Below are positions 3,587 to 23,218 of a stretch of DNA of 24,586 bases, in pieces. The notes below the pieces were generated by a model. It did no database searches, was not told the DNA's origin, and saw only the letters and a list, made by a program, of their open reading frames with translations. Positions within the stretch are counted from its first letter, which is position 1; every line of letters begins with the position of its first letter. This DNA comes from a virus (taxonomy: Duplodnaviria > Heunggongvirae > Uroviricota > Caudoviricetes): the IMG/VR virus record IMGVR_UViG_2939142107_000008, one strand, 5' to 3'. The position numbers and the translations under genes are program-made.

Positions 3587-6154
3587 TCAATGTTCGCTTC
3601 CTGTTAACTGCCGGACAAGTGCAACCAGTTCGCTTACCTGATTTTCCAGAGTGCTGATCCGGGTGTCTGCTGTTGCCAGATTTTCACGTAGCGTTGTGTT
3701 TTCCTCTTCCAGCGCGGTAACGCGATCATCTGTTTCACGGGCGACCTGAACAAGTAAACCCGTCACGGCGGCGTAGTCAACATTAAGATAGCGCGTTTCT
3801 TCGCGTAGCTCGTTGCCGTCAACGGTCGGGCCTTGCAACTCTTCACCGTAATGAGTAAACGATCCCACAGCTTCTGGTATCGCCTCCATTACTTCCTGTG
3901 CAATAACGCCAGCATAAGGCATCCCGTTTTCCCTGAGCGTGTAGGTGTATCCGTTCATTTTACGGATTGCTTTCGTCGCGTCGCTGATAACGAGAATATC
4001 GTCTTTAAGGTCGCGGTCTGATGACTGATTCAGCGTTGTGCAATTAATAGCGCCATTTACATCAAACAACTGGCCTGCTGACGTTTTTTGCGCATAAAAC
4101 AGATACGCAGCAGACGTGCCAACCTCAAAAACGTTTTGTCGAGTACTGGAACCCCACACCCTGATACCAACTGGTAGTTCTGAATTACCTGAATTAAGTA
4201 AAGCAAAACGATTGCCAGTCCCTGTTTGTTTTCTAATTACTAAATCGGCAGTTGAGTTAACCTCATCTTTGTTGATGGTTAGCGCCTGTGCTGTAGCACC
4301 GTTGACAGTACCGCTTAGTAGTTGCACCGCGCCATCATCGCCATTTAACAGCACTTGAGCGCTGCTTCTGTGGTTTTTAAGGCACAACATTTTTCCCGTG
4401 TTTTTCGATGTACCTACTGACCACGCCGAATTGGTTCCAGTGCTATCAACACCGCGCACAGCACAATTCATACTACTGTAATCTGACGTACTCCCCAGCA
4501 CATCAACACGCCCGCCGCCTAATTTTGATGGAGTCGTCGAGGTTAACGACCTGACGGTTACATCCTGATTCCATCCTGAAACAACTACCTGACTCCACTC
4601 CGTCCAACTTCCATTGACAACAAAGCGAACGTATATGCGTTTTGTGTCGCTGCCAATCAGCGTTTGCATGATCGCATAATCTGAACCCGTAGTTTTACGA
4701 GTAGATTCTACACGTAGCAAAAAGTTACCGCTTACGCCGTCAGGCTTATTGGTAATATATGCACCACCTGCGACAGTTTTGCATTGATAGTATTTAACAG
4801 ATCCAGCCACTGTATTAGCAATGATCAAGTCGTTTAAATCAATAGTCTTGTTGTCAATGGTTTCCGGCTCGATAGATCCCGCCATACCTGCGTTAAATGT
4901 GGCAAGGTCAGAAAAGGTTGTTTTACCGCCTACCGTCACCCCGCTATCGAGTTTTGCTTGTGTGATTACTTTGCTGTTTTTTGTGTGGTCAGAATAACTA
5001 CCAAAATACAAATCACCGTCACCAGCTATACCCAGGTATTTTTGATCAACATCATCAACCTTAAACCCAATGGACAAGTTTTTAATTGTGTTGTTGCTCG
5101 TTAAAACCAAAGGCGTATGCTGAGATCCTTTGATGCTTACCGTAGTGTTATCGGAACTGGTGCTTGTGTTTGCAAATTCTGCGGTGGCTGCGCTGATTTT
5201 GTAAGTTATTTTTAGATTGCGGGCCTCAACCCTCCCGTCGTGGCGAACAATAAAATCACCACTTGATTCACCTTTTGTGTTTTTCGCCCTGATGTGGATT
5301 TCGCCAAGTGATTCGTTGTTTTCAGGCGACCAAACAACGCCGCGCTCGCTTCCGTCGTTGTTCATGAACCACAGATGAGCGGTTCCTTTTGCTGATTTTA
5401 GCCTGATAGATGGCGTTTCTTTCAATATATCAAGATCACCAGACATAACATCGCCGGATTTTTTCACCTGCGCATCGTTAGTTACGTTGCCAAGTCCAAC
5501 ATCCGATTTCGACGGCTTGTTTGCCGAGCCGTATAGCTCATTGATGCTAAAAGTCCCGTTGTTAAGCCGGGCATCGTTGCCGGCATAGATCTTAATCTTC
5601 GCGGTTGAGTAGTCGATATTGATCGCTGACCACGTATCGCCGCACCGCGAGAATATACCAGAACCGTGGCTATAAATGGTCGCCGTGCTTCCGGTCGGCC
5701 TATCACCGCGCCAGAAATGACCACCTTTGTCACGCAGAGCTTTTAAGATCTCTACATCGCTCATCTTGCCGTTTGTTGATATCCCGCTACCGCCAAGACC
5801 GAAAGCGCCTGTAAGCATAGCATTAGAAAGACCCAAATCTGCTTTAGTCGGCTTGTTTAACTGGTCGTAAATCCTTACAACGGGGCTTTCAACATATCCA
5901 GAAGGCGCGGCGGTTTGCTTAACAAATCCGTCTGGAATGTATAATTCCGTGCGTGCCGTCTGCGCCAGTACCGCAACCTTCAGGGGTATCCCTTTCACCT
6001 GGTTATCTCCCGCAACGGTATTCCCGGCAACCTGCCGGGTGGCAACCGAGACCGCTTTCTGTGCCACACGGTTTATCGCCCATGCGCTGGCCTGTGGCAC
6101 CATACGGGTATCAAGGCTGTTCAGATTGCGGATGGCATTCTCAAGCCCCTTCAT
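3587..6154 (-). CDS. Phage tail fibre/tail spike (855 aa) with C-terminal intramolecular-chaperone (peptidase S74-like) autoproteolytic domain
   Basis: Fibre-repeat-like segment (LGNVTNDAQVKKSGDVMSGDLDI); C-terminus SDRDLKDDILV...GYTYTL...GVIAQEVMEAIPEAV...YLNVDYAAVTGLLVQ matches the S-x4-K dyad and conserved blocks of self-cleaving C-terminal chaperone domains of endosialidase-type fibres; GAGG RBS. Confidence 0.8.
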   Translation of the reverse strand: MKGLENAIRNLNSLDTRMVPQASAWAINRVAQKAVSVATRQVAGNTVAGDNQVKGIPLKVAVLAQTARTELYIPDGFVKQTAAPSGYVESPVVRIYDQLNKPTKADLGLSNAMLTGAFGLGGSGISTNGKMSDVEILKALRDKGGHFWRGDRPTGSTATIYSHGSGIFSRCGDTWSAINIDYSTAKIKIYAGNDARLNNGTFSINELYGSANKPSKSDVGLGNVTNDAQVKKSGDVMSGDLDILKETPSIRLKSAKGTAHLWFMNNDGSERGVVWSPENNESLGEIHIRAKNTKGESSGDFIVRHDGRVEARNLKITYKISAATAEFANTSTSSDNTTVSIKGSQHTPLVLTSNNTIKNLSIGFKVDDVDQKYLGIAGDGDLYFGSYSDHTKNSKVITQAKLDSGVTVGGKTTFSDLATFNAGMAGSIEPETIDNKTIDLNDLIIANTVAGSVKYYQCKTVAGGAYITNKPDGVSGNFLLRVESTRKTTGSDYAIMQTLIGSDTKRIYVRFVVNGSWTEWSQVVVSGWNQDVTVRSLTSTTPSKLGGGRVDVLGSTSDYSSMNCAVRGVDSTGTNSAWSVGTSKNTGKMLCLKNHRSSAQVLLNGDDGAVQLLSGTVNGATAQALTINKDEVNSTADLVIRKQTGTGNRFALLNSGNSELPVGIRVWGSSTRQNVFEVGTSAAYLFYAQKTSAGQLFDVNGAINCTTLNQSSDRDLKDDILVISDATKAIRKMNGYTYTLRENGMPYAGVIAQEVMEAIPEAVGSFTHYGEELQGPTVDGNELREETRYLNVDYAAVTGLLVQVARETDDRVTALEEENTTLRENLATADTRISTLENQVSELVALVRQLTGSEH

Positions 6155-10915: not shown

Positions 10916-12076
10916 ATGACTACACTCAAAGAACTCAAAGAAGAGCTTGCTCAGATACAAGATGAACACGCTAAGAACAGAAAAAAGGCTGAAATTGCAG
11001 CTTTAACCGCTTCCGCTGACAATGAAATCAGACTCGCTCAGAGAAACATTGGATACAATGTACGTGAGTGGACCGTTGAAGTCATTATTCAAAAGTATGG
11101 TGATAATATTGAAAATGACAAAAACGAGCTTTTTATTCCAGATTATCAACGTGATTACAAGTGGGATACAAAAACAGCCTCTCGCTTTATAGAAAGTATT
11201 CTATTAGACTTTCCAATACCTTACCTTTACATTGCTGATGTATTTAATGAAGACCCTGAATTAGATGGTAGGGTAGAAATCATTGATGGTTCACAACGGA
11301 TACGCTCTATTTATTATTTTTGGAACGATCAATTTGAGTTAAAGGATTTGAAAGAGCTTAAAAGTTTAGAAGGTTTCAAATTTTCAGATCTTTTAGCTAG
11401 CCGCCAAAGAAGATTTTTAAGAGCTTCACTAAGATTTATTGAGTTGAAAGGTGATGTTGAGGAACAACATAGAAGAGATTTATTTGAAAGGATCAACTCA
11501 GGTGTTAAAAGATTAGAAGCGATGGAAGTGAGGCATGGCTCAGATGCTGCTACCTCAATGTTCTATAAAGATGTTGTGACCCCATGCTCAACAAACTCAC
11601 TTTTTTCCCAACTAGCTCCATTATCAGACCGGAAACGGTCGAATGGCGATCATCGTGAGTTAGTTTTGAGATTTTTTGCATATTTAAATGATTTAGAAAA
11701 CTATAAGGGATTTGTCCGTCCCTTTATTGATAATTATTTAAATGAACAAGCAGCAGCTGTGACTACTCAACAAGATGTTGATAATTTTAAACATGATTTT
11801 GAAATGATGCTTGCTTTTGTTGCTACCCATTTCCCTATTGGCTTTAAAAAGACCGCAACAAGTAAAACCACCCCACGAGCCAGATACGAAGCCATTGCCG
11901 TGGGAACTGCACTTGCATTAAAAACTAACCCACAACTCCAGAGTCCAGCCGTACCTGTAGGTGAATGGCTATTTGAAGAGGAATTTGAAACACTTGTTAC
12001 TGCTGATAGTGCAAACAATACCAGCCAGCTAAAAAACAGAATCTTTTACGTTAAAAATAAGTTGTTAGGGATTTAA
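10916..12076 (+). CDS. DUF262 (ParB/Srx-like) domain protein, 386 aa, lacking the DUF1524/HNH nuclease half
   Basis: FIPDYQRDYKW and IIDGSQR correspond to the two signature motifs (QRxxxW and DGQQR) of DUF262 as found in GmrSD/SspE/BrxU N-terminal domains; no His-Me/HNH motif in C-terminal half; AGGA RBS; AT-rich. Confidence 0.7.
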   Translation: MTTLKELKEELAQIQDEHAKNRKKAEIAALTASADNEIRLAQRNIGYNVREWTVEVIIQKYGDNIENDKNELFIPDYQRDYKWDTKTASRFIESILLDFPIPYLYIADVFNEDPELDGRVEIIDGSQRIRSIYYFWNDQFELKDLKELKSLEGFKFSDLLASRQRRFLRASLRFIELKGDVEEQHRRDLFERINSGVKRLEAMEVRHGSDAATSMFYKDVVTPCSTNSLFSQLAPLSDRKRSNGDHRELVLRFFAYLNDLENYKGFVRPFIDNYLNEQAAAVTTQQDVDNFKHDFEMMLAFVATHFPIGFKKTATSKTTPRARYEAIAVGTALALKTNPQLQSPAVPVGEWLFEEEFETLVTADSANNTSQLKNRIFYVKNKLLGI

Positions 12077-12078
12077 AA

Positions 12079-12768
12079 ATGAGTCTAATTGATTTACGAG
12101 ATGAATATGAAGAAAGAGCAAGAGACATTATGGAACTGCTTTCTCTTGCATCATCTATAGAGATTCATACTCAGCAGTTAGATCCGCAAGCGCATCAAGA
12201 TGAAATAGAATCTAATATCCTAAGGGTAAATATTTTAAAATCATCCGTTCATATGATGCTATATAATCAAGTTGAAAATACTGCCAGAGGTTGCATCGAG
12301 TCAATTTATGATCATTTACAAGATAATGAGGTGAATTACGCATCACTCAGGGAGAAGCTTCAAGTAAATATATTACATAGAATTGTTTCAGATAATGAAA
12401 CAGGGCAATCCCTTTATAAAAAGATAGGCACTGACATTTCCAAAAGAATAATTTCAGCCTCATTGAATATTCGTAAAGAATTCAATGGTAATGTTTGCAA
12501 GCCTGTATTACACAAAATAACGCAGGCTTACGGAATAACTATCGCAAACTCACCTGAATGTAGAAATGGTATTGACTTAGACTTGCTTAAGGATATCAGA
12601 AACGAACTCGCGCATGGAAGTACTAGCTTCTCTAAAAAGGGGCAAATTGACCCCTTAGAAGAAGTTAAGTCTAGAGCAGAGAGAGTTGATCTATATCTTC
12701 GTTTATTAATAAACTCAACTGAAGATTATATTATCTCTAACGGATATTTATCCCCTCAACATGCCTAA
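12079..12768 (+). CDS. HEPN-like protein (229 aa), putative RNase/effector partner of DUF262 protein
   Basis: RNELAH near C-terminus fits the HEPN Rx4-6H motif; gene starts 3 nt after DUF262 stop (operon); 3' end overlaps convergent MTase by about 32 nt. Confidence 0.5.
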   Translation: MSLIDLRDEYEERARDIMELLSLASSIEIHTQQLDPQAHQDEIESNILRVNILKSSVHMMLYNQVENTARGCIESIYDHLQDNEVNYASLREKLQVNILHRIVSDNETGQSLYKKIGTDISKRIISASLNIRKEFNGNVCKPVLHKITQAYGITIANSPECRNGIDLDLLKDIRNELAHGSTSFSKKGQIDPLEEVKSRAERVDLYLRLLINSTEDYIISNGYLSPQHA

Positions 12769-13777
12769 CAAACGTTCTCCCTATTACTTGGCCAATTATA
12801 GGGGGAACAGCATTACCAATCATCGTTCCTAACTTTTGGAATGAAAAAGGCGTATTTTTTCCAATAAATTTATAATCCATAGGAAAAGATTGTAAAATAG
12901 CAGCTTCACGCAAAGTTATTGCTCTATTTTGCTCAGGATGTCCGAATCGCCCATTACCATATCCATAACATTGGGTAGTTATTGTAGGACTAGTATCGTC
13001 CCAAACCATCCGTCCATAAACACTTTTATAGGTAGCACCTGAATGCTTTTTATGGCAATCCGCTCTAATTTCTTCAGGCCAATCATCCCACGTACCACCT
13101 GGTAAAGAGTGCAAGATTCGTTTAAGGTTAATATCCCTTAATTTAGGCGAACGATGCAATGGATCACTTTCGAGTTTCTCCCCTGCACCTATTTTTGGCA
13201 ACTGACCAATAGCATCCTTTACTGTAACTTTACGGCTTACTTTTTTTTGATCAAGGCTGATTGGCCCCAATATGGACCCAATTAGAATTAATCTACGTCT
13301 ATTTTGAGGCAAGCCATACTCGGAACATTTTACAACGTCGTACCACAGATGATACCCAAGAGTCTTTAATACACTAACAAACTCTTCAAAAACCTTATGA
13401 TTTCTAAGTTGAGGAACATTTTCCATAGTCACAAGCTCTGGCATGACATCACTTACAATCCTCTGAAACTCAGATAAAAGACGCCACTTTGTATCATCTT
13501 TTCTGCTATTTGGATTACGATACTTGGAAAACGGTTGGCAAGGGGCACAGCCTGCAAGTAATCTAATATTTCCTTCCTTGAACATAGCAGACACATCGCT
13601 GGATTGCAGTTCAGTAACTGACTGGTTAATGAACTTCGTTAAGGGATTATTGCTCTCAATAGCGAAACGGCAGGACTCATCAATATCAATGCCATGAGAA
13701 ACTTCAATCCCGGCTTTTTTTAGCCCAAAAGTTAAGCCCCCTGCGCCACAAAAAATGTCTACTGCTTGAATGTTCAC
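12737..13777 (-). CDS. DNA (cytosine-5) methyltransferase (346 aa)
   Basis: Motif I FCGAGG, motif IV GCAPCQPFS (PCQ), motif VI MENVPQL (ENV), motif VIII LPQNRRR; GTG start with GGAG RBS; AT-rich relative to phage core. Confidence 0.85.
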   Translation of the reverse strand: MNIQAVDIFCGAGGLTFGLKKAGIEVSHGIDIDESCRFAIESNNPLTKFINQSVTELQSSDVSAMFKEGNIRLLAGCAPCQPFSKYRNPNSRKDDTKWRLLSEFQRIVSDVMPELVTMENVPQLRNHKVFEEFVSVLKTLGYHLWYDVVKCSEYGLPQNRRRLILIGSILGPISLDQKKVSRKVTVKDAIGQLPKIGAGEKLESDPLHRSPKLRDINLKRILHSLPGGTWDDWPEEIRADCHKKHSGATYKSVYGRMVWDDTSPTITTQCYGYGNGRFGHPEQNRAITLREAAILQSFPMDYKFIGKNTPFSFQKLGTMIGNAVPPIIGQVIGRTFVRHVEGINIR

Positions 13778-15224: not shown

Positions 15225-15578
15225 TCAATGAACGGTATCGAGCAGCTTTAACAGCTCAGGGACCAGTTTTTCCGCCTGGCGAGTCAGGCACAAAATCACC
15301 CGGGAATCGTTAGTGCCGACATAGAAATTGCGCACAGGTCTGGTTTCACGAACTGGTTGTGGTTCCGGCTCCTGCGCTCTCTCAGTCAGGCGCGGGAAAT
15401 GTCTGCGTGTATCCCCTTCACAACGGTGAGCCACACGCCCACTCTGACGTAACTTGCTTGCTGACTGCAGAACGCGCTGCCGTGAGTAACCTGCAAAAGC
15501 ATCCGCAATGTCTCCGGAAGTACAGCCCGGATGGGCTTCAATGAATTTCTGAACTTCATTCAAAAGACTCATGCTCAC
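15225..15578 (-). CDS. Hypothetical phage protein (117 aa)
   Basis: ORF translationally coupled to replication gene (ATGA overlap at 15575..15578). Confidence 0.4.
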   Translation of the reverse strand: MSMSLLNEVQKFIEAHPGCTSGDIADAFAGYSRQRVLQSASKLRQSGRVAHRCEGDTRRHFPRLTERAQEPEPQPVRETRPVRNFYVGTNDSRVILCLTRQAEKLVPELLKLLDTVH

Positions 15579-16516
15579 CCCCTGAATCCTGCCGGGATCT
15601 GGCTGTAGTCCACGCTGTCGTAACTGGATTTGAAATACGGGTCTTCGCGTTTTTCTGTGTATGTGCTGATGGACGGCGATAAGCGCAGGGAAAGCTCATC
15701 CCATTTTTCCCGCAGCTTCGACGGGCTGAGCACGTTACGGCACCAGAACGGATCGCGGCTGACGCGGCTGTACATCTCGCAGATTTGTTTGTGAGTACGA
15801 CCATCCTGCACACACATCAGGCGAATTTCGTTTGCCCAGGCTGTCCAGTTCGGTTCTTTGGGACGAACCACCTCGCCGTCACATTCGGCGGCCTGCTCGT
15901 ACAGGGCAATGATTTTTTTCCAGAGCCACTGTGCGCAGGTCAAATCATCCTGCGTTCCCCACTGGCGCTTTTTAGGGCTGAATACAACCGCATCAGGATG
16001 GCGAGTTAAAAAATCCTGTTCAGCCGTCTGCGTGTCCGGTTGCGAAGCGTCCGGACGAGAAGGTTTTTTATCTGACGGATCATGTTTTGATTTTACTGAC
16101 GGATCCCCGCCAGATTCTGACGGGTGAAAACCCGCTTTTTTGCCAGATTTCGACGCATCAAATTTTGACGTGTCAGATTTTGATGCGTCAGATTTTGACG
16201 GGTCAGAATCTGACAGTTGAGAAAATGCCGCTGCCTGAAGCTTCGCAACGTTAAGCTGATAAACATTCGACGCATTGCGGTTACCCTGGCGACGCGCCTT
16301 ACGCGTTAACCAGCCTTCTGCTTCCAGCCGTGCGATAGCCGTTCTGACGGTACTCATCCCCGCGCCAATCTGACGGGCAATAGTTTCAATTGATGGCCAG
16401 CACACACCTTCGTCATTACTGAAATCAGCCAGGCGGGCCATAATTGCCACGCTGGATAATTTCATGCCTGACGCAGCGCAACCATCCCATACATAGCCGG
16501 TTAATTTAGTGCTCAT
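15575..16516 (-). CDS. Replication initiation protein, O-like (N-terminal wHTH initiator domain, low-complexity linker, C-terminal domain)
   Basis: N-terminal LSSVAIMARLADFSNDEGVCWPSIETIARQIGAGMSTVRTAIARLEAEGWL is a typical phage replication-initiator HTH; central SKSDASKSDTSKFDASKSG linker is encoded by the iteron array. Confidence 0.7.
   Translation of the reverse strand: MSTKLTGYVWDGCAASGMKLSSVAIMARLADFSNDEGVCWPSIETIARQIGAGMSTVRTAIARLEAEGWLTRKARRQGNRNASNVYQLNVAKLQAAAFSQLSDSDPSKSDASKSDTSKFDASKSGKKAGFHPSESGGDPSVKSKHDPSDKKPSRPDASQPDTQTAEQDFLTRHPDAVVFSPKKRQWGTQDDLTCAQWLWKKIIALYEQAAECDGEVVRPKEPNWTAWANEIRLMCVQDGRTHKQICEMYSRVSRDPFWCRNVLSPSKLREKWDELSLRLSPSISTYTEKREDPYFKSSYDSVDYSQIPAGFRG
16088..16219. 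repeat. Iteron array (about 7 copies of a 15-bp unit TCAGATTTTGACGnn) inside rep gene: putative phage origin
   Basis: ccagattctgacggg / ccagatttcgacgca / tcaaattttgacgtg / tcagattttgatgcg / tcagattttgacggg / tcagaatctgacagt in tandem; each unit is a partial palindrome (TCAGA...TCTGA). Confidence 0.65.
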
Positions 16517-16864
16517 GACCGACCTCTATTTCCCTGAATTTACGACGAAACTGTTCGAGCGGGCTGAAGCACTCATGCTCATAGCCTTCACGGAGGTAGA
16601 TAACCCGTTGTGTTTCCGGCTCCCAACGAATGACTCTGACGGGCACTCCGTAGTGATCTTTGAACCAGCGGTTAACTTGTCGCAAAGGACTGTCTCCTTC
16701 TGCCGGTTGAAATCCCCCACAGCCCACTCAGCAAAGCTGTGGGTTACAATTTCCCTGTCACCTGGTACATTTACTGCATAGCAATACTCCACCTTCGCTT
16801 TTCCACCCGGTACAGGAAGCGCAATCAGTTGCGAGCGACGGTAGTGTGTTGTTAAACTGTTCAT
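16506..16864 (-). pseudogene. Small early gene apparently split by a frameshift at a G5/C5 run (overlapping ORFs 16526..16864 and 16506..16727)
   Basis: Upstream ORF has a coupled ATGA start at 16864 but a Ser-rich junk-like C-terminus; downstream ORF has a plausible C-terminus overlapping rep start but begins only at GTG; frames differ by one nucleotide around ccccc at 16714..16718. Confidence 0.35.
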
Positions 16865-17418
16865 GCGTTAGTTTCTCCACAACCAGAAGCAATCGACGCC
16901 ACGACGCCCGGAGCTGCACACTCGCGGGCGTCATTACTTTCTGAAACGCAAAAAATTTTGTAGACAAGTGCTGCATGCTCCTGCAGCTTCGAAATTGAGA
17001 GGTACAGCTCGTCGTTAATTGCTGTCTTCTCATGCGGTTCCACTACACCGTCTTCGATTGCCGAACGAATCTGTTTTGAATAACTGCCGATCTGTTCAAT
17101 GACTTCCAGTAAACGCTGGTTAATATCGGCATTGTCCACATCCTCGACGTCAGGAAGAGACACAAAGACGCCATTTGCAGACTGCGCCACAGCGTCGGCA
17201 ATGAAGTGAGTGCCACCAGCACGTTGTAAAATCATTGCCCATCCCAGCGGGAAAATCTGATCGCCATCGGCACGAAGGCGGTTAAATAATGCGTTCTCTG
17301 TTACATCCAGCCACTCAGCAGCTTCAGCGTAACCCCCCGGCAACGCCGCGATAGTTTTTCTGACAGCTTTCACGTACCACTCAGGCTGTTTTTCCACTTT
17401 CCAGTGATGATTACCCAC
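16861..17418 (-). CDS. Regulatory protein at the CII position (CII/YdaT-like, 185 aa), hypothetical
   Basis: Immediately downstream of cro with overlapping start/stop; assignment by position only. Confidence 0.4.
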
Positions 17419-17671
17419 GGCTTACCTCCTGTTCCTGTGGTTTAAACCCATTCTGGTTTTGGCTAGATTGAAAACGTGCCGGATAAAGAATCTGCATTTC
17501 GCTGATTTCACCCTTAAAAAAATTGGCCAGACGTTCTGCAAGATCGATAGATGGAATTTGTTCCAGTCTTTCAATACGACTCAGCGTCGCTGGATTGACC
17601 TGAACGCCAGCAGCAACATGCTGCAAAGTAAATCCGTGCGCCTTACGCACATTCCGTAATGGTGATTGCAT
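17411..17671 (-). CDS. cro: Cro-like HTH (XRE-family) regulator
   Basis: GFTLQHVAAGVQVNPATLSRIE helix-turn-helix; GGAGG RBS; divergent from repressor gene. Confidence 0.7.
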   Translation of the reverse strand: MQSPLRNVRKAHGFTLQHVAAGVQVNPATLSRIERLEQIPSIDLAERLANFFKGEISEMQILYPARFQSSQNQNGFKPQEQEVSRG

Positions 17672-17768: not shown

Positions 17769-18461
17769 ATGAACATAGGAAACCGAGTCAGACAACTTCG
17801 CCAGGCGAAGAACATGAAAATCGCCGATCTCGCTGAAGCAATAGGAGTGGATGCGGCGAATATCTCACGCCTGGAAACAGGTAAGCAGAAACAATTCACT
17901 GAACAAGCCCTGAGTAATATTGCCAGGAGCTTAGGTGTTGATATTGCTGATCTCTTTACCTCAGACGTCAAAAGTAATACTGTATGTAAAAACAGTATTA
18001 GTGAGGATGTTGCGCAGGTGAAGGATGTATTCCGTATTGAAATGCTGGATGTCAGTGCCAGTGCGGGAAATGGCCTTATCCAGGGCGGTGATGTCATTGA
18101 TGTGATTCATGCCATTGAATACAGAACTGATAATGCTGTATCGATGTTTGGCGGACGGCCAGCCAATCACATTAAAGTTATCAACGTTCGTGGGGACAGT
18201 ATGTGTCCAACCATTGAGCCAGGAGATCTCATCTTCGTTGATGTCAGTATCAATCAGTTTGATGGAGATGGTATCTATGTATTTGGTTTTGATGATAAAA
18301 TTTATGTCAAACGACTGCAAATGATACCTGACAAACTACTGGTGATTTCTGATAACCAGATTTACCGTGAATGGGGAATTACCAGCGAAAATGAACACCG
18401 GTTTATGGTCTTTGGAAAGGTCTTAATCAGCCAGTCACAAACCCTTAAGCGACACAATTAA
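17769..18461 (+). CDS. cI: CI-like repressor: N-terminal HTH_XRE plus C-terminal S24 (LexA-like) autopeptidase
   Basis: IADLAEAIGVDAANISRLETGK HTH; C-terminal GDSMCPTIEPGDLIFVD and VKRL (Ser-Lys dyad context); essentially no RBS, consistent with a leaderless pRM-type transcript. Confidence 0.85.
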   Translation: MNIGNRVRQLRQAKNMKIADLAEAIGVDAANISRLETGKQKQFTEQALSNIARSLGVDIADLFTSDVKSNTVCKNSISEDVAQVKDVFRIEMLDVSASAGNGLIQGGDVIDVIHAIEYRTDNAVSMFGGRPANHIKVINVRGDSMCPTIEPGDLIFVDVSINQFDGDGIYVFGFDDKIYVKRLQMIPDKLLVISDNQIYREWGITSENEHRFMVFGKVLISQSQTLKRHN

Positions 18462-18481
18462 CCCTTACCTCCTCATCAATT

Positions 18482-18506
18482 AGCCACCCAAAGGTGGCTT
18501 TTCATT
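18482..18506 (+). terminator. Rho-independent terminator after repressor gene
   Basis: agccacc-caaa-ggtggct followed by tttt. Confidence 0.6.
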
Positions 18507-19026
18507 ACCCTTTAAATTGCATATCTCGCAACAAAAACACTTGCATAATGCGCAACTTCATTTTATCTTTCTTTCCAGACAAACAAACAAGGTACTAACA
18601 AAATTTGGTTGTAACACGGCGTATGGCACATGCGTCGTTAGCGGTCTGGTGACGTTAAAGGGGACAATCCACTCCTTGCTCGAGCAAACAAACCAGGTAG
18701 CCGGAATGTGCAAGTCAATGATGATGCTGATAAGACGCCTAACCAGCGTGGCGATTCGGTTTGACGCCTGGGAAGAGACCAGGGTGCAACGATGAGGGCA
18801 TTTATGGAGCCGCGACAAAGTGTGGTGCCGTAACTGGCTAAGTGCTCTCAGCGTTGTGGTAATCCGCGAAATGGCGCGGCGGTAAGTATGGCGGGGTTAC
18901 TCTTTCCCCGTTGAGGACACCGGATTGTCAGGTTGACCATACGCCTGAGTGACAACCCCACCACAACAGCCACTGCTTTGGCGGTACCAGTTTGTACCCT
19001 TGCTTCCGGCTGGTACCGCTCTTTTT

Positions 19027-19115
19027 ACAAAACAGAGAAGAGCATCACCGGACGACGGGCTCATAACCCAATCCATCCGGGCGGCAGTCACCGCAGGTGT
19101 TCTTCTCTGTTTTGT
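19027..19115 (+). repeat. 15-bp perfect inverted repeat (acaaaacagagaaga / tcttctctgttttgt) forming a long stem-loop in the leader of the early-left operon
   Basis: Exact reverse-complement arms at 19027..19041 and 19101..19115 with a GC-rich spacer of about 59 nt; lies inside a ~700-bp ORF-poor GC-rich stretch downstream of cI. Confidence 0.6.
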
Positions 19116-19163
19116 GGAGAAACCAACCGACCTTGCAGGGTCGATATGATGAGGAGCAGCAAA

Positions 19164-19526
19164 ATGGCTAGCGAACGCAGTACTGATGTGCAGGCATTTA
19201 TCGGGGAGCTGGACGGCGGCGTATTTGAAACCAAAATCGGCGCTGTTCTCAGTGAAGTCGCTTCCGGTGTGATGAACACGAAAACCAAAGGTAAGGTCTC
19301 GCTCAACCTGGAAATCGAACCGTTTGATGAGAACCGTGTGAAAATCAAACACAAACTCTCATATGTTCGCCCGACTAACCGCGGGAAAATTTCTGAAGAA
19401 GACACCACCGAAACGCCGATGTATGTCAATCGCGGTGGTCGCCTGACTATTCTGCAGGAAGACCAGGGACAATTACTGACTCTTGCCGGTGAACCTGACG
19501 GAAAACTTCGCGCAGCAGGTCATTAA
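19164..19526 (+). CDS. Hypothetical early protein (120 aa), YfdP-position
   Basis: Start trimmed to ATG at 19164 with GAGGAG RBS; synteny with the following yfdQ/yfdR-like genes. Confidence 0.5.
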   Translation: MASERSTDVQAFIGELDGGVFETKIGAVLSEVASGVMNTKTKGKVSLNLEIEPFDENRVKIKHKLSYVRPTNRGKISEEDTTETPMYVNRGGRLTILQEDQGQLLTLAGEPDGKLRAAGH

Positions 19527-19591: not shown

Positions 19592-20416
19592 ATGTCTCAG
19601 AACTTAGACGCAACCGCAATTAATCAAATCCATGCTCTTATTTCTGCTCAGGGTGTTAATGAAATTATCAGTAAGATTGGTGCCGATGCTGTGGCATTGC
19701 CTGAGAATTTCCGCATTCATGATCTGGAAAAATTTAATTTAAATCGCTTCCGTTTCCGTGGTGCGCTTTCCACTGCCAGCATCGATGACTTTACCCGTTA
19801 TTCTAAAGATCTTGCAGATGAAGGCACCCGCTGCTTTATCGATGCCGATAATATGCGAGCCGTCAGTGTGCTTAACCTGGGTACTATTGATGAACCAGGT
19901 CACGCAGATAACACCGCCACTCTCAAACTGAAAAAGACAGCACCGTTCTCTGCTCTGTTGTCTGTTAATGGCGAGCGTCATTCCCAGAAGTCACTGGCAG
20001 AATGGATTGAAGACTGGGCCGACTACCTTGTGGGCTTTGATGCTAATGGTGACGCTATTCAGGCAACAAAAGCGGCTGCGGCTGTCCGTAAAATCACGAT
20101 TGAAGCAAACCAGACCGCTGATTTTGAAGATAATGACTTCAGCGGCAAACGCTCCCTGATGGAGTCTGTCGAAGCGAAAACCAAAGATATTATGCCAGTG
20201 GCATTTGAATTTAAATGCGTTCCGTTTGAAGGTCTGAAAGAACGTCCATTTAAATTACGCCTCAGCATTATCACTGGCGATCGTCCTGTACTGGTTCTGC
20301 GCATTATTCAGCTGGAGGCGGTGCAGGAAGAAATGGCTAACGAATTTCGTGATCTGCTTGTTGAGAAATTCAAAGACAGCAAAGTAGAAACCTTTATTGG
20401 TACTTTCACCGCCTGA
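19592..20416 (+). CDS. yfdQ: DUF2303-family protein (YfdQ-like, 274 aa)
   Basis: Length and sequence consistent with my recollection of CPS-53 YfdQ; GAGGA RBS; followed by a terminator hairpin. Confidence 0.55.
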
Positions 20417-20450: not shown

Positions 20451-20543
20451 ATGGAAACGTAATTGACTCAATAATCGCCGGATGGTGAGGGCTTCCTTTT
20501 ACCAGAATTCAGCGTGGTGCAGCACATATACGCGGAGAACAAA

Positions 20544-21080
20544 ATGTCATTTATTAAAACTTTTTCCGGGAAGCATTTTTATTATGACAGGATAAATAAA
20601 GACGACATCGTGATTAACGATATCGCGGTTTCCCTTTCAAATATCTGTCGCTTTGCCGGTCATCTTTCACACTTCTACAGTGTCGCCCAACATGCGGTGC
20701 TTTGCAGCCAGCTGGTGCCGCAGGAATTTGCTTTTGAAGCGTTAATGCATGATGCAACAGAAGCGTATTGCCAGGACATCCCCGCGCCGCTGAAACGCCT
20801 TCTTCCTGACTATAAACGGATGGAAGAAAAAATAGACGCCGTAATCCGTGAGAAATACGGGTTACCCACGGTTATGAGCACGCCTGTGAAATATGCCGAT
20901 CTCATCATGCTGGCAACCGAACGCCGCGATCTCGGGCTTGATGATGGCTCTTTCTGGCCAGTACTGGAAGGTATCCCGGCAACAGAGATGTTCAAAGTTA
21001 TTCCACTGGCTCCGGGCCATGCCTACGGGATGTTTATGGAACGTTTTAACGAGTTATCGGAGTTACGCAAATGCGCATGA
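20544..21080 (+). CDS. yfdR: HD-domain phosphohydrolase (YfdR-like 5'-deoxynucleotidase)
   Basis: HD-domain pattern (H...HD...D) in SVAQHAVLCS...ALMHDATEAYCQDIP; start trimmed to ATG at 20544 with GGAG RBS. Confidence 0.65.
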   Translation: MSFIKTFSGKHFYYDRINKDDIVINDIAVSLSNICRFAGHLSHFYSVAQHAVLCSQLVPQEFAFEALMHDATEAYCQDIPAPLKRLLPDYKRMEEKIDAVIREKYGLPTVMSTPVKYADLIMLATERRDLGLDDGSFWPVLEGIPATEMFKVIPLAPGHAYGMFMERFNELSELRKCA

Positions 21081-23142: not shown

Positions 23143-23218
23143 TGGTGCCGATAATAGGAGTCGAACCTACGACCTTCGCATTACGAATGCGCTGCTCTAC
23201 CAACTGAGCTATATCGGC
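23143..23218 (-). tRNA. thrW: tRNA-Thr (anticodon CGT)
   Basis: Reverse complement reads GCCGATATAGCTCAGTTGGTAGAGCAGCGCATTCGTAATGCGAAGGTCGTAGGTTCGACTCCTATTATCGGCACCA; 7-bp acceptor stem GCCGATA/TATCGGC, anticodon loop TTCGTAA, GTTCGA T-loop, CCA end. Confidence 0.9.

Follow-up and report, generated by a model that had tools for sequence, protein, structure and literature searches.

Results

A GC-rich folded leader lies downstream of the prophage repressor gene

The window analyzed here is a stretch of Caudoviricetes DNA of 24,586 nucleotides, in which the early-left (pL) operon of an SfV/mEp460-like prophage begins with an untranslated stretch at positions 18507-19163. On the 5' side lies the intrinsic terminator of cI (18482-18504, plus strand), a hairpin with the arms AGCCACC/GGTGGCT (18482-18499) followed by a T run. 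On the 3' side is a yfdP-like gene on the plus strand, whose start codon at 19164 is preceded by a small hairpin (19126-19145) and the Shine-Dalgarno sequence GAGGAG (19151-19156) and whose start region is 100% identical to that of K-12 yfdP.

An earlier reading of the window, made from its letters only, had described this interval as ORF-poor, GC-rich and structured, and computation bears the description out. GC content is 0.50-0.56 across 18550-19150 and 0.38-0.44 in the flanks on either side, and a 587-nt stretch of the plus strand folds better than its shuffles (z = −4.4). The 650-base gap 3' of the repressor gene is an array of conserved folded RNA modules, here called A, P6, B, C and D. 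Separate BLAST pieces match P1/P7, epsilon15-like phages, SfV/SfIV, ST64B and K-12 Qin, which makes the leader a mosaic, and its modules also occur separately elsewhere.

The OL/pL region (18517-18569, plus strand) contains two 16-nt operator-like direct repeats, TTGCATATCTCGCAAC (18517-18532) and TTGCATAATGCGCAAC (18541-18556), as well as a −35 element TTGCAT (18541-18546) separated by 17 nt from a −10 element TATCTT (18564-18569). The promoter/operator that the sequence-only reading had proposed here is thus readable, and it is kept in SfII, ST64B and F1055, but a generic scan for consensus promoters did not call the TTGCAT/TATCTT pair. Transcription from pL would start near 18576.

We compared the window with Rfam 15. 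At the gathering cut-off tRNA-Thr was the sole match in the whole window, with none for A, P6, B, C or D, and at E ≤ 10 the region 18400-19300 gave three chance-level matches and no family for any module. In 14 related loci the only Rfam matches were tRNA, DicF (in K-12), C4 and IsrK, all of them located elsewhere. The covariance check suggested by the sequence-only reading therefore returned no family; alignments of the homologous regions nevertheless show conserved secondary structure, the folds being kept with compensatory changes.

Module A is a conserved pseudoknotted RNA

Module A (18614-18807, plus strand) is a pseudoknotted RNA of ~190 nt, supported by alignments, covariation and a covariance model that we call R1. 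Three alignments and a mutual-information scan identified four covarying helices and a pseudoknot. In the window the plus strand carries P1 (18617-18624/18630-18637, with the loop GGCAC), the closing pairs of P2 (18646-18649/18693-18696), an invariant 19-mer, GGTAGCCGGAATGTGCAAG (18696-18714), P4 (18735-18738/18746-18749), the pseudoknot (18741-18744/18758-18761) and P5 (18767-18771/18779-18783). About 70 nucleotides of the module are invariant and unpaired, and a 6-nt complementarity connects GCACAU in P1 with AUGUGC in the 19-mer.

Among the pair cells of module A 95% are paired, versus 26-50% when the partners are slid; both sides have changed in 13 of the 25 pairs, and the observed score was reached by none of 500 shuffles. 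One pair of the pseudoknot switches from C-G to A-U, and G-U pairs occur on the plus strand only. R1 scores 147 bits in the window and 131 bits in P1. Module A is both a genuine RNA structure and a previously undescribed RNA family: it has no Rfam 15 match and is unannotated in every occurrence, and no description of it was found in the databases and full-text literature searched, although a prior mention in older papers is possible. A tRNA-like or tmRNA-like identity was considered and rejected, since ARAGORN calls only the flanking tRNAs.

Module A occurs as a discrete cassette in unrelated contexts

Sensitive BLAST against 5426 complete E. coli genomes located module A in 1833 of them, about one third. 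The matches were prophage and plasmid copies only, so no E. coli core gene resembles module A, and the idea that it mimics a host RNA was rejected because the core genes of the 5426 genomes are without a match. The search for relatives covered exact matches to the 19-mer; the hosts of module A are Enterobacterales.

In lambdoid phages module A lies 3' of cI on the same strand, 180-493 nt past the cI stop codon (30 loci). In the window it lies ~40 nt past the putative transcription start, and at two loci (L014 and L044) the same pL −10 element is ~10 nt 5' of the first hairpin of module A. In P1 it is found between tRNA-Ile (trnI) and ban, without annotation in the P1 record, and in P1-like elements its start lies ~15 nt beyond tRNA-Ile. 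The order in epsilon15-like phages is module A, P6 and tRNA-Arg. A same-strand tRNA adjoins 45 of 128 copies, and the strand of module A is that of its neighbors for all 45 of these tRNAs and in all cI-linked copies. The genes 3' of module A are unrelated between contexts (yfdP-like, ban, tRNA-Arg). In F1055 the core of module A is precisely missing and P6, B, C and D are all kept, and R1 finds nothing in K-12 Qin. Module A is a discrete cassette.

P6 and modules B, C and D

P6 (18787-18856, plus strand; fold z = −3.8) is a 'punctuation' domain in which a 14-bp stem (18787-18800/18843-18856) closes a variable insert. The tRNA-Arg gene of epsilon15-like phages begins right after it, and a P6-type stem recurs twice in the P1 ban leader. 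Module B (18853-18967, plus strand) has the closing helix GUUGUGGU (18853-18860)/ACCACAAC (18960-18967) and a hairpin at 18864-18868/18875-18879 on the same strand. It is the structured domain 5' of dicF in K-12 Qin and part of the 'dicF-like region' of P1; positions 18853-18975 share 89% identity with the sequence that immediately precedes dicF in NC_000913 and 75% with P1. Its consensus fold shows compensatory changes in 7 pairs (9 sequences). Module B by itself folds no better than its shuffles (z = −0.96), its structural support being the covariation among these 9 sequences.

Module C (18976-19026, plus strand) is a DicF-related hairpin with a U-run, a putative intrinsic terminator or sRNA. 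Its 13-bp hairpin has the core GCGGTACCAG (18981-18990)/CTGGTACCGC (19010-19019) and is followed by TCTTTTT (19020-19026); the predicted fold has a free energy of −21.2 kcal/mol (z = −4.9), and a compensatory change, GGTGCCAG/CTGGCACC, is seen in the locus L090. The short palindrome 'ggtaccagtttgtacc' that the sequence-only reading had reported is present and belongs to this separate hairpin, apart from the 15-nt inverted repeat.

The exact 15-nt inverted repeat itself, ACAAAACAGAGAAGA (19027-19041) and TCTTCTCTGTTTTGT (19101-19115), lies where that reading had placed it and forms the base of an 89-nt hairpin, module D (19027-19115, plus strand), in the 5' UTR of the yfdP-like gene. It is the perfect portion of 25-nt arms (19027-19051/19091-19115) that are 84% complementary, and the basal helix that contains it is 20 bp long. 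Module D is predicted to fold with −45.5 kcal/mol (z = −8.3), a value reached by none of 200 shuffles, and it is kept in ST64B and F1055 with one compensatory change of a G-C to an A-U pair.

Similarity to the dicBF leader, the P1 ban leader and other RNAs

The array resembles in kind both the noncoding part of the K-12 dicBF operon and the P1 ban leader. For K-12 dicBF, termination together with processing by RNase E and RNase III has been published, and the 72-nt DicF derives from the full-length dicBF mRNA (PMC5069750). The dicBF leader of Qin has the same position as the window leader, in a left operon adjoining the repressor gene. Module C and K-12 DicF (RF00039) both carry TTTGGCGGTAyCAGTTT and each ends in a hairpin and a U-run, and a long helix follows the terminator in the window leader as in K-12 dicF. 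DicF pairs with xylR and pykA through its 5' region and with the ftsZ ribosome binding site through its 3' region. Unlike K-12 DicF, module C is without the DicF 5' region (UUUCUGGUGACG), and the 3' half of its hairpin differs; Qin in turn differs from the window leader in having the ORFs ydfA, ydfB and ydfC and in lacking module A. The Rfam DicF model found nothing in the window, and relaxing the threshold to E ≤ 10 for a 121-nt stretch did not change this, whereas the K-12 dicF control scored 76.7 bits. Module C is preceded by the dicBF upstream domain (89% identity) and ended by a predicted Rho-independent terminator (UCUUUUU), and modules B and C are homologous to the dicF locus.

Two suggestions of the sequence-only reading gain substance here. 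The interval does hold an sRNA-like element, the DicF-related hairpin with its terminator, and the idea of an RNase III-processed leader agrees with the 15-bp repeat being the base of a long helix whose position matches exactly that of the RNase III-processed helix following K-12 dicF (PMC5069750). Being positioned like the helix with the RNase III site in the dicBF transcript, module D is by analogy a candidate RNase III site.

In the P1 ban leader, module B and a DicF-like terminator come right after Pban, and P6-type stems and module A (131 bits with R1) are present as well. This leader too is repressor-controlled. Its order differs from that of the window leader, with B and C first and A last, and unlike the window leader it has tRNA-Asn, tRNA-Thr and tRNA-Ile and the tciABC genes interspersed.

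ROOL and GOLLD are large phage RNAs that lie near tRNA islands, next to tRNA genes or interleaved among them, with elaborate pseudoknotted structure and no known partner (PMC12286853). Module A resembles them in being encoded by phages and prophages, pseudoknotted and often tRNA-adjacent, but it has ~190 nt versus ~580 to over 800 nt for ROOL/GOLLD, and neither Rfam family matches it. AgvB is defined by the GcvB-R1 target consensus CACAACA (PMC4104026). In a feature that recalls the AgvB/AsxR anti-sRNAs of EHEC prophages, the DicF-like element of the window carries CACCACAACAG, which contains CACAACA, 5' of a terminator hairpin. Unlike AgvB it is located in a pL leader and not in the moron site downstream of PR', and CACAACA is all that the two have in common. 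The motif also forms the 3' side of the helix that closes module B, which by itself accounts for its conservation. An AgvB-type (RF02702) or Pas sRNA identity was rejected, as the locations differ and the models have no match.

The interval is not supported as protein-coding

ORFs of 25-197 amino acids occur on both strands of the interval, which might encode a small protein, for example that of ORF 18897-19352 or of the ORFs in mEp460/SfII, with the conservation reflecting coding. Hypothetical proteins are annotated across the region in the records of mEp460, SfII and others, and PHROG matches were obtained to phrog_3651 (E = 6e-97, minus-strand ORF 18897-19352) and phrog_33599 (E = 6e-18). 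The phrog_3651 ORF, however, runs antisense to the yfdP-like gene, and its frame is lost at loci where another gene follows module D. The annotated ORFs disagree in strand and frame between records, a Pfam scan of the interval ORFs gave no match, and NCBI PGAP annotates nothing here among the E. coli matches listed. Substitutions in the helices are compensatory and indels fall in loops. We rejected a protein-coding interval because Pfam is silent, the PHROG frames are not conserved across contexts and the annotations disagree, and we find such a reading scarcely credible; the hypothetical proteins called in phage records are probably mis-annotations. By Pfam, PHROG and frame conservation, no conserved coding gene of the kind that would have spoken against the sequence-only reading was found. 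With no supported ORF and with compensatory changes in the homologous regions, the interval is noncoding structured RNA, as that reading had held. Its remark that an N-like ORF is not obvious here also agrees with the ORF list and the Pfam scan, which show none from pL up to the first gene.

Module A is not a put RNA

Since the sequence-only reading had raised an RNA antiterminator of the HK022 put type, we compared the leader with put. About 70 put loci were collected, and a covariance model (R2) was built from 14 put RNAs (HK022 putL and putR, HK639 putL and relatives). With filters off, R2 had no match in the leader or at any module-A locus, all its matches having E ≥ 1 and lying elsewhere; conversely, R1 found nothing in HK022 or HK639. 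The leader is thus not a put RNA, because the covariance model of HK022/HK639 put does not match it, and the proposed put-type antiterminator, which these searches contradict in both directions and of which the window would hold a single copy, was rejected.

Both put and module A are promoter-proximal in the pL operon and 3' of a cI-type repressor gene, put lying 139-2026 nt 3' of HK022-type cI (about 30 loci), and put-containing leaders carry downstream RNA modules of the same kind as the window leader. The first hairpin of module A and the lower part of put stem I both have ACGGCG...CAUGCGUCG, including a G-U wobble (PMC9378689). This similarity is too short to count as put membership. Put RNAs act in cis on RNA polymerase by way of its beta-prime zinc-binding domain and suppress terminators farther downstream. 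Put has ~70 nt and two stems, whereas module A has ~190 nt, at least four helices and a pseudoknot. The put consensus (stem I, GAACGGCGCG...CCAUGCGUCGG; stem II, GGCGGG...CGGCAAU) does not fit module A, which is without the put hallmarks GGCGGG...CGGCAAU and the A9-G35 platform. Unlike put, module A has no copy in the right operon and is also found outside pL operons. Among the interpretations of the sequence-only reading, then, a noncoding interval, an sRNA-like element and an RNase III-like helix stand and a put-type antiterminator does not.

Discussion

We suggest, with about an even chance of being right, that the leader is a 5' untranslated tandem array of separately mobile RNA modules in the pL operon, expressed upon induction as a precursor that is cut into stable RNAs. 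When cI is inactivated, pL would fire, and most transcripts would end at the DicF-like terminator (19020-19026). The resulting precursor, ~450 nt long, would contain A, P6, B and C, and host RNases would cut it into stable RNAs; by the precedent of K-12 dicF these might be RNase E and RNase III, and RNase P may act where a tRNA replaces module B. For transcripts that read through, cleavage would fall within the 20-bp module D helix, and they would continue into yfdP, yfdQ, yfdR and beyond. Module A, which would be co-expressed with tRNAs and DicF-type riboregulators, is most likely a stable RNA that acts in trans and, early in lytic growth, binds some macromolecule of the host or the phage.

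Alternatively, module A might belong to a new class of processive antiterminator RNAs that act in cis, being a functional analog and not a homolog of put. Nascent module A would then bind and modify the transcribing RNA polymerase so that the DicF-like and later terminators are read through. An RNA antiterminator of such a different kind, rather unlikely as we judge it, has to be considered because module A holds put's slot 3' of cI (180-493 nt, 30 loci), a hairpin of −21 kcal/mol with a U-run lies as a terminator between module A and the first ORF, and no N-like ORF is seen from pL to the first gene, a Q antiterminator being encoded for the late genes. In the lambdoid context these three features suit a cis-acting antiterminator at least as naturally as a trans-acting RNA. 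The pL −10 element ~10 nt before the first module A hairpin in L014/L044, the two terminator-like hairpins between the array and the next ORF in epsilon15-like phages, the resemblance of the first hairpin to lower put stem I and the shared kind of downstream modules in put-containing leaders also fit an antiterminator. The mutual silence of R2 at module-A loci and of R1 in HK022 and HK639 argues against it, as does the presence of one module A copy per phage. In P1-like elements, moreover, module A lies ~2.3 kb past Pban, after the dicF-like terminator and tRNAs and ~70 nt before ban, and it cannot explain read-through of the dicF-like terminator because it sits after it. The same arrangement of terminators is found in SfII, ST64B, F1055 and K-12 Qin, which lack both module A and put, and Qin reads through its dicF terminator without either, given that DicF is made from the full-length dicBF mRNA and R1 finds nothing there.

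Module A might instead be a cis element for RNA processing or stability, such as a 5' protective fold, a scaffold that guides RNase cuts in the array or a self-cleaving ribozyme that would free it from the adjacent tRNA or sRNA. Fixed short distances to tRNA ends, the recurrence of flanking long stems (P6) as punctuation in the P1 ban leader and the compact, conserved pseudoknotted core are consistent with such a role, which is nonetheless improbable: ~70 invariant unpaired nucleotides are many more than a protective hairpin would require, an Rfam search at E ≤ 10 gave no ribozyme family, and the arrays of F1055, ST64B and K-12 manage without module A. More improbable still is a riboswitch or ligand sensor for downstream genes. 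A complex conserved junction with a pseudoknot would suit one, and the GCACAU/AUGUGC complementarity could permit alternative folds, but the downstream genes are unrelated (yfdP-like, ban, tRNA-Arg), no expression platform overlaps the core, and it is P6 that comes next and not a terminator or ribosome binding site. Given the lack of a consistent downstream gene, we rejected the riboswitch.

Module A has thus gone without annotation in a model phage, P1, as well as in many lambdoid and epsilon15-like phages and in roughly one in three complete E. coli genomes. Tentatively, and with the odds against it, we propose that it represents a new functional class of phage RNA in P1-like, lambdoid and epsilon15-like phages of Enterobacterales, either a polymerase-modifying antiterminator unrelated in sequence to put or a stable RNA capturing a host factor early in lytic growth, and that with P6, module B or a tRNA, and the DicF-type modules it makes up a shufflable cassette array that is general in the early operons of enterobacterial phages. 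Because it occupies put's place in some relatives, module A may bear on antitermination in phages lacking N, and if it is an antiterminator it could show how N-less lambdoid phages pass their early-left terminators. Alternatively it may be a host-takeover RNA, expressed alongside phage tRNAs and DicF-type cell-division regulators. Annotation of these regions could improve as well, since dicF proves to be a single element of a bigger, conserved RNA array built of modules.

Prophage setting of the leader

The window represents a lambdoid prophage that belongs to the SfV/SfII/mEp460/cdtI type. Its − strand carries genes for a Q antiterminator (PF06530; 13857-14225), an O-like replication protein (15575-16516), cII of the CP76 family (16861-17418) and a cro-like product (17411-17671), and its + strand carries an S24-type cI (17769-18461), a yfdP-like gene (19164-19526), yfdQ (DUF2303; 19592-20416) and yfdR (20514-21080). 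Given this gene order, the interval 18507-19163 constitutes the 5' untranslated region of the early-left operon, which supports the position assigned to it by the sequence-only reading. A tRNA-Thr(CGT) gene (23143-23218, − strand) adjoins the prophage end and is probably the attachment site. Two neighboring + strand genes at 10916-12768, within the otherwise − strand right arm, encode a GmrSD N-terminal domain (PF03235) in one case and a HEPN domain (PF18737/PF18735) in the other; the pair looks like a defence-type moron and is adjoined by a C-5 cytosine methylase gene (12737-13777, − strand). In mEp460 (360-548, − strand), two adjacent Rfam matches, to the C4 antisense RNA at 83.6 bits and to IsrK at 67 bits, fall within or beside the annotated Rha antirepressor region.

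The signals read earlier from the sequence were recovered. The cI terminator is at 18482-18499, and a possible promoter, TTGCAT-17-TATCTT, is readable at 18541-18569 (a generic promoter scan made no call) and is kept in SfII, ST64B and F1055. Two operator-like 16-mers (18517-18532 and 18541-18556) are spaced 24 nt apart. GC content is 0.50-0.56 inside the interval versus 0.38-0.44 outside. The absence of a credible ORF holds in that none is Pfam-supported, although ORFs do occur on both strands. The phrog_3651 match is a − strand frame antisense to the yfdP-like gene and is lost in loci with a different downstream gene. Published annotations of the region conflict in strand and frame, and no PGAP annotation falls in it among the E. 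coli complete-genome matches listed. A coding gene here appears less likely.

BLAST of a 702-nt leader query against phage, plasmid and E. coli collections revealed a mosaic, with pieces found separately in different entries: positions 142-319 in P1, P7, D6, SJ46 and many P1-like plasmids; 155-398 in phiV10, TL-2011b and other epsilon15-like phages (Uetakevirus); 392-514 in K-12 Qin, PPompW phages and others; 517-702 in SfV and SfIV; and 560-666 in ST64B and relatives. We handled these pieces as modules A, P6, B, C and D and established their structures, strand, contexts and homologies.

Structure and distribution of module A

Module A (18614-18807, + strand) was analysed with alignments and a covariance model, R1. 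An alignment of eight sequences shows invariant blocks between stems with compensatory changes. The structure proposed on 31 non-redundant sequences consists of hairpin P1, the P2 closing pairs, hairpins P4 and P5, and one pseudoknot between the P4 loop and downstream GGUG/GGUU. In this structure 95% of cells are paired; sliding the partners lowers the figure to 26-50%. Both sides have changed in 13 of 25 pairs, and none of 500 shuffles reached the observed covariation. When every pair of columns was scanned without bias in a model-based alignment of 63 sequences, the same helices emerged, as did the pseudoknot pair, which is C-G in 57 sequences and A-U in six. G-U pairs are frequent (13/31 at one pair of hairpin P1 and 12/31 at one P4 pair), indicating that the folded strand is the + strand, i.e. 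RNA. The 5' strand of hairpin P1, GGCGTATGG (18618-18626), has perfect 9-nt complementarity to CCATACGCC in module B (18937-18945), a possible long-range pairing; each segment also has a local pairing partner.

With R1, a single copy is detected in the window (147 bits), another in phage P1 (131 bits), and none in SfII, ST64B, F1055, K-12 Qin, CPS-53, HK022 or HK639. An invariant 19-mer, GGTAGCCGGAATGTGCAAG, is matched in at least 120 viral contigs, in 24 stretches from about 20 Enterobacterales species and in two MAGs with doubtful labels. These MAGs (L143 and L155) are labelled Oscillospiraceae and Bacillota, and L155 has a full module A (185 bits); the labels probably reflect binning contamination rather than true hosts. 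One contig (L025, − strand) has two copies about 800 nt apart (3975-4155 and 4782-4960), the second lacking the exact 19-mer (136 bits). Of 5426 complete E. coli genomes, 1833 have the core, at 1914 chromosomal and 553 plasmid places. Among the E. coli matches listed, it overlaps no annotated RNA or gene, and one match, short and partial, falls within a CRISPR array. Module A has no match in Rfam 15 at any threshold.

Module A occurs in different genomic contexts. At 30 lambdoid loci it lies 180-493 nt downstream of cI on the same strand, the cI genes being 71-100% identical to that of the window; at two loci (L014 and L044) the −10 element of the early-left promoter pL lies about 10 nt before hairpin P1. 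In P1-like phage-plasmids, about 15 nt separate its start from the preceding tRNA-Ile2(CAU), and about 70 nt separate its end from the following ban; it closes a long leader in which a 'dicF-like region' and two further tRNAs are also found. In epsilon15-like phages and one Klebsiella phage it comes first in a small rightward unit, followed by P6, tRNA-Arg(UCU), a DicF-like hairpin-terminator, a second terminator-like hairpin and a variable ORF. F1055 precisely lacks the module A core but keeps P6, B, C and D, so module A is a discrete cassette. It touches a tRNA in 45 of 128 copies, on the same strand every time. Phage RNAs without known function beside tRNA genes are an established kind, which includes the T4 species 1 and 2 RNAs. 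ROOL and GOLLD also belong to it (PMC12286853).

Modules P6, B, C and D

P6 (+ strand; 18787-18800/18843-18856; fold z = −3.8) is a long stem enclosing a variable insert, and this stem type occurs twice more in the P1 ban leader. In SPN1S (~2120-2225) and F1055 (2385-2520) the insert holds two perfect T-arm-like hairpins, CTGGTTCGATTCCAG and GTCCGTTCAATTCGGAC, which may be tRNA remnants or tRNA-like minihelices within an RNA array.

Module B (18853-18967, + strand) shares 89% identity with K-12 DNA immediately 5' of dicF and 75% with the P1 dicF-like region; in epsilon15-like phages a tRNA-Arg sits in its slot. In its consensus fold, GUUGUGGU and ACCACAAC pair as the closing helix, a second helix is internal, and seven pairs show compensatory changes. 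Just 5' of the DicF-like hairpin, CACAACA (18962-18968) is kept in mEp460, SfII, F1055 and ST64B. This motif, the target consensus of GcvB-R1, is the defining feature of the anti-sRNA AgvB. Because it doubles as the 3' strand of the closing helix, structure alone may account for its conservation.

Module C and DicF have TTTGGCGGTAyCAGTTT in common. Module C lacks the DicF 5' region, however, and forms a separate 13-bp stem (−21.2 kcal/mol), which covaries (L090), followed by a U-run. The Rfam DicF model does not match module C (K-12 dicF control, 76.7 bits). The DicF-related part of the leader is a further member of an already known kind of RNA.

Module D lies directly 3' of module C. The 15-nt exact inverted repeat noted previously (19027-19041/19101-19115) is the perfect core of 25-nt arms that close an 89-nt hairpin (−45.5 kcal/mol, z = −8.3), kept in ST64B and F1055 with one compensatory pair (G-C to A-U). 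A short 'palindrome', also noted previously, belongs to a second hairpin, that of module C (18981-18990/19010-19019), followed by TCTTTTT. Homologous regions, whose comparison the sequence-only reading had proposed, keep secondary structure with compensatory changes in modules A, B, C and D. In K-12, a ~21-bp helix starts 8 nt past the dicF terminator. RNase E makes the DicF 5' end, the 53-nt form ends at the terminator, and an RNase III cut gives 72-nt DicF (PMC5069750). Since that cut must fall in this helix, module D corresponds in position and structure to a documented site of processing. In K-12 Qin, the long helix downstream of dicF encloses a domain (4443-4590) beginning GTGGTGAATGCGGCTGAGCGCACGCGG. 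Its similarity to the B-variant modules found in mEp460, in ST64B and in leaders with put suggests that another conserved RNA module may lie between dicF and dicB.

Comparison with put RNAs

The references were putL and putR of HK022 together with the putL-like RNA annotated in HK639. The first hairpin of module A and put stem I share ACGGCG...CAUGCGUCG, including the G-U wobble described in the cryo-EM structure (PMC9378689), and both RNAs occupy the same slot 3' of cI, although the cI types differ. However, the window and all module A loci gave no match to R2, a covariance model based on 14 put RNAs, and module A lacks the put hallmarks GGCGGG...CGGCAAU and the A9-G35 platform. Together with the absence of R1 matches in HK022 and HK639, these results rule out membership of the put family.

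A put 15-mer scan returned 120 stretches with 105 put-like copies (52 distinct sequences), many followed by B-like modules. About 60-130 nt after put, four leaders (L245, L269, L276 and L278) carry AGCTAGTTGGTGAGGTAATGGCTCACCAAGGCGACGA, which seems to resemble a 16S rRNA segment closely; these phage early leaders may contain a mimic of an rRNA fragment. In ST64B (1940-2010) and F1055 (1680-1750), a common conserved ~70-nt GC-rich sequence fills the promoter-proximal slot held by module A in the window and by put in HK022, and may be a third kind of promoter-proximal RNA.

Possible function of module A

We favor module A as a stable trans-acting RNA because it behaves as a free-standing cassette embedded among tRNAs and sRNAs. 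Upon induction, pL would fire and most transcripts would stop at 19026, yielding a ~450-nt precursor from which host RNases would release stable RNAs; transcripts that read through would extend into the early-left genes and be cleaved within module D. As the main alternative, module A might be a new kind of cis-acting antiterminator, to which we give about half the weight of the trans-acting reading. Its slot equivalence with put, the terminators downstream and the lack of an N-like ORF in the interval are consistent with such a role, and its mode of action may be put-like despite the lack of kinship. The P1 copy, however, sits after rather than before the terminator to be overcome, and relatives and K-12 Qin pass a similar terminator without module A, which argues for action in trans. 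A processing or stability element or ribozyme, and likewise a riboswitch, are less likely.

Neither the P1 record nor the RefSeq E. coli matches listed carry an annotation for module A, and full-text literature searching found no description of it, although older papers might mention it. There is a realistic chance that module A represents a functionally new class of RNA.
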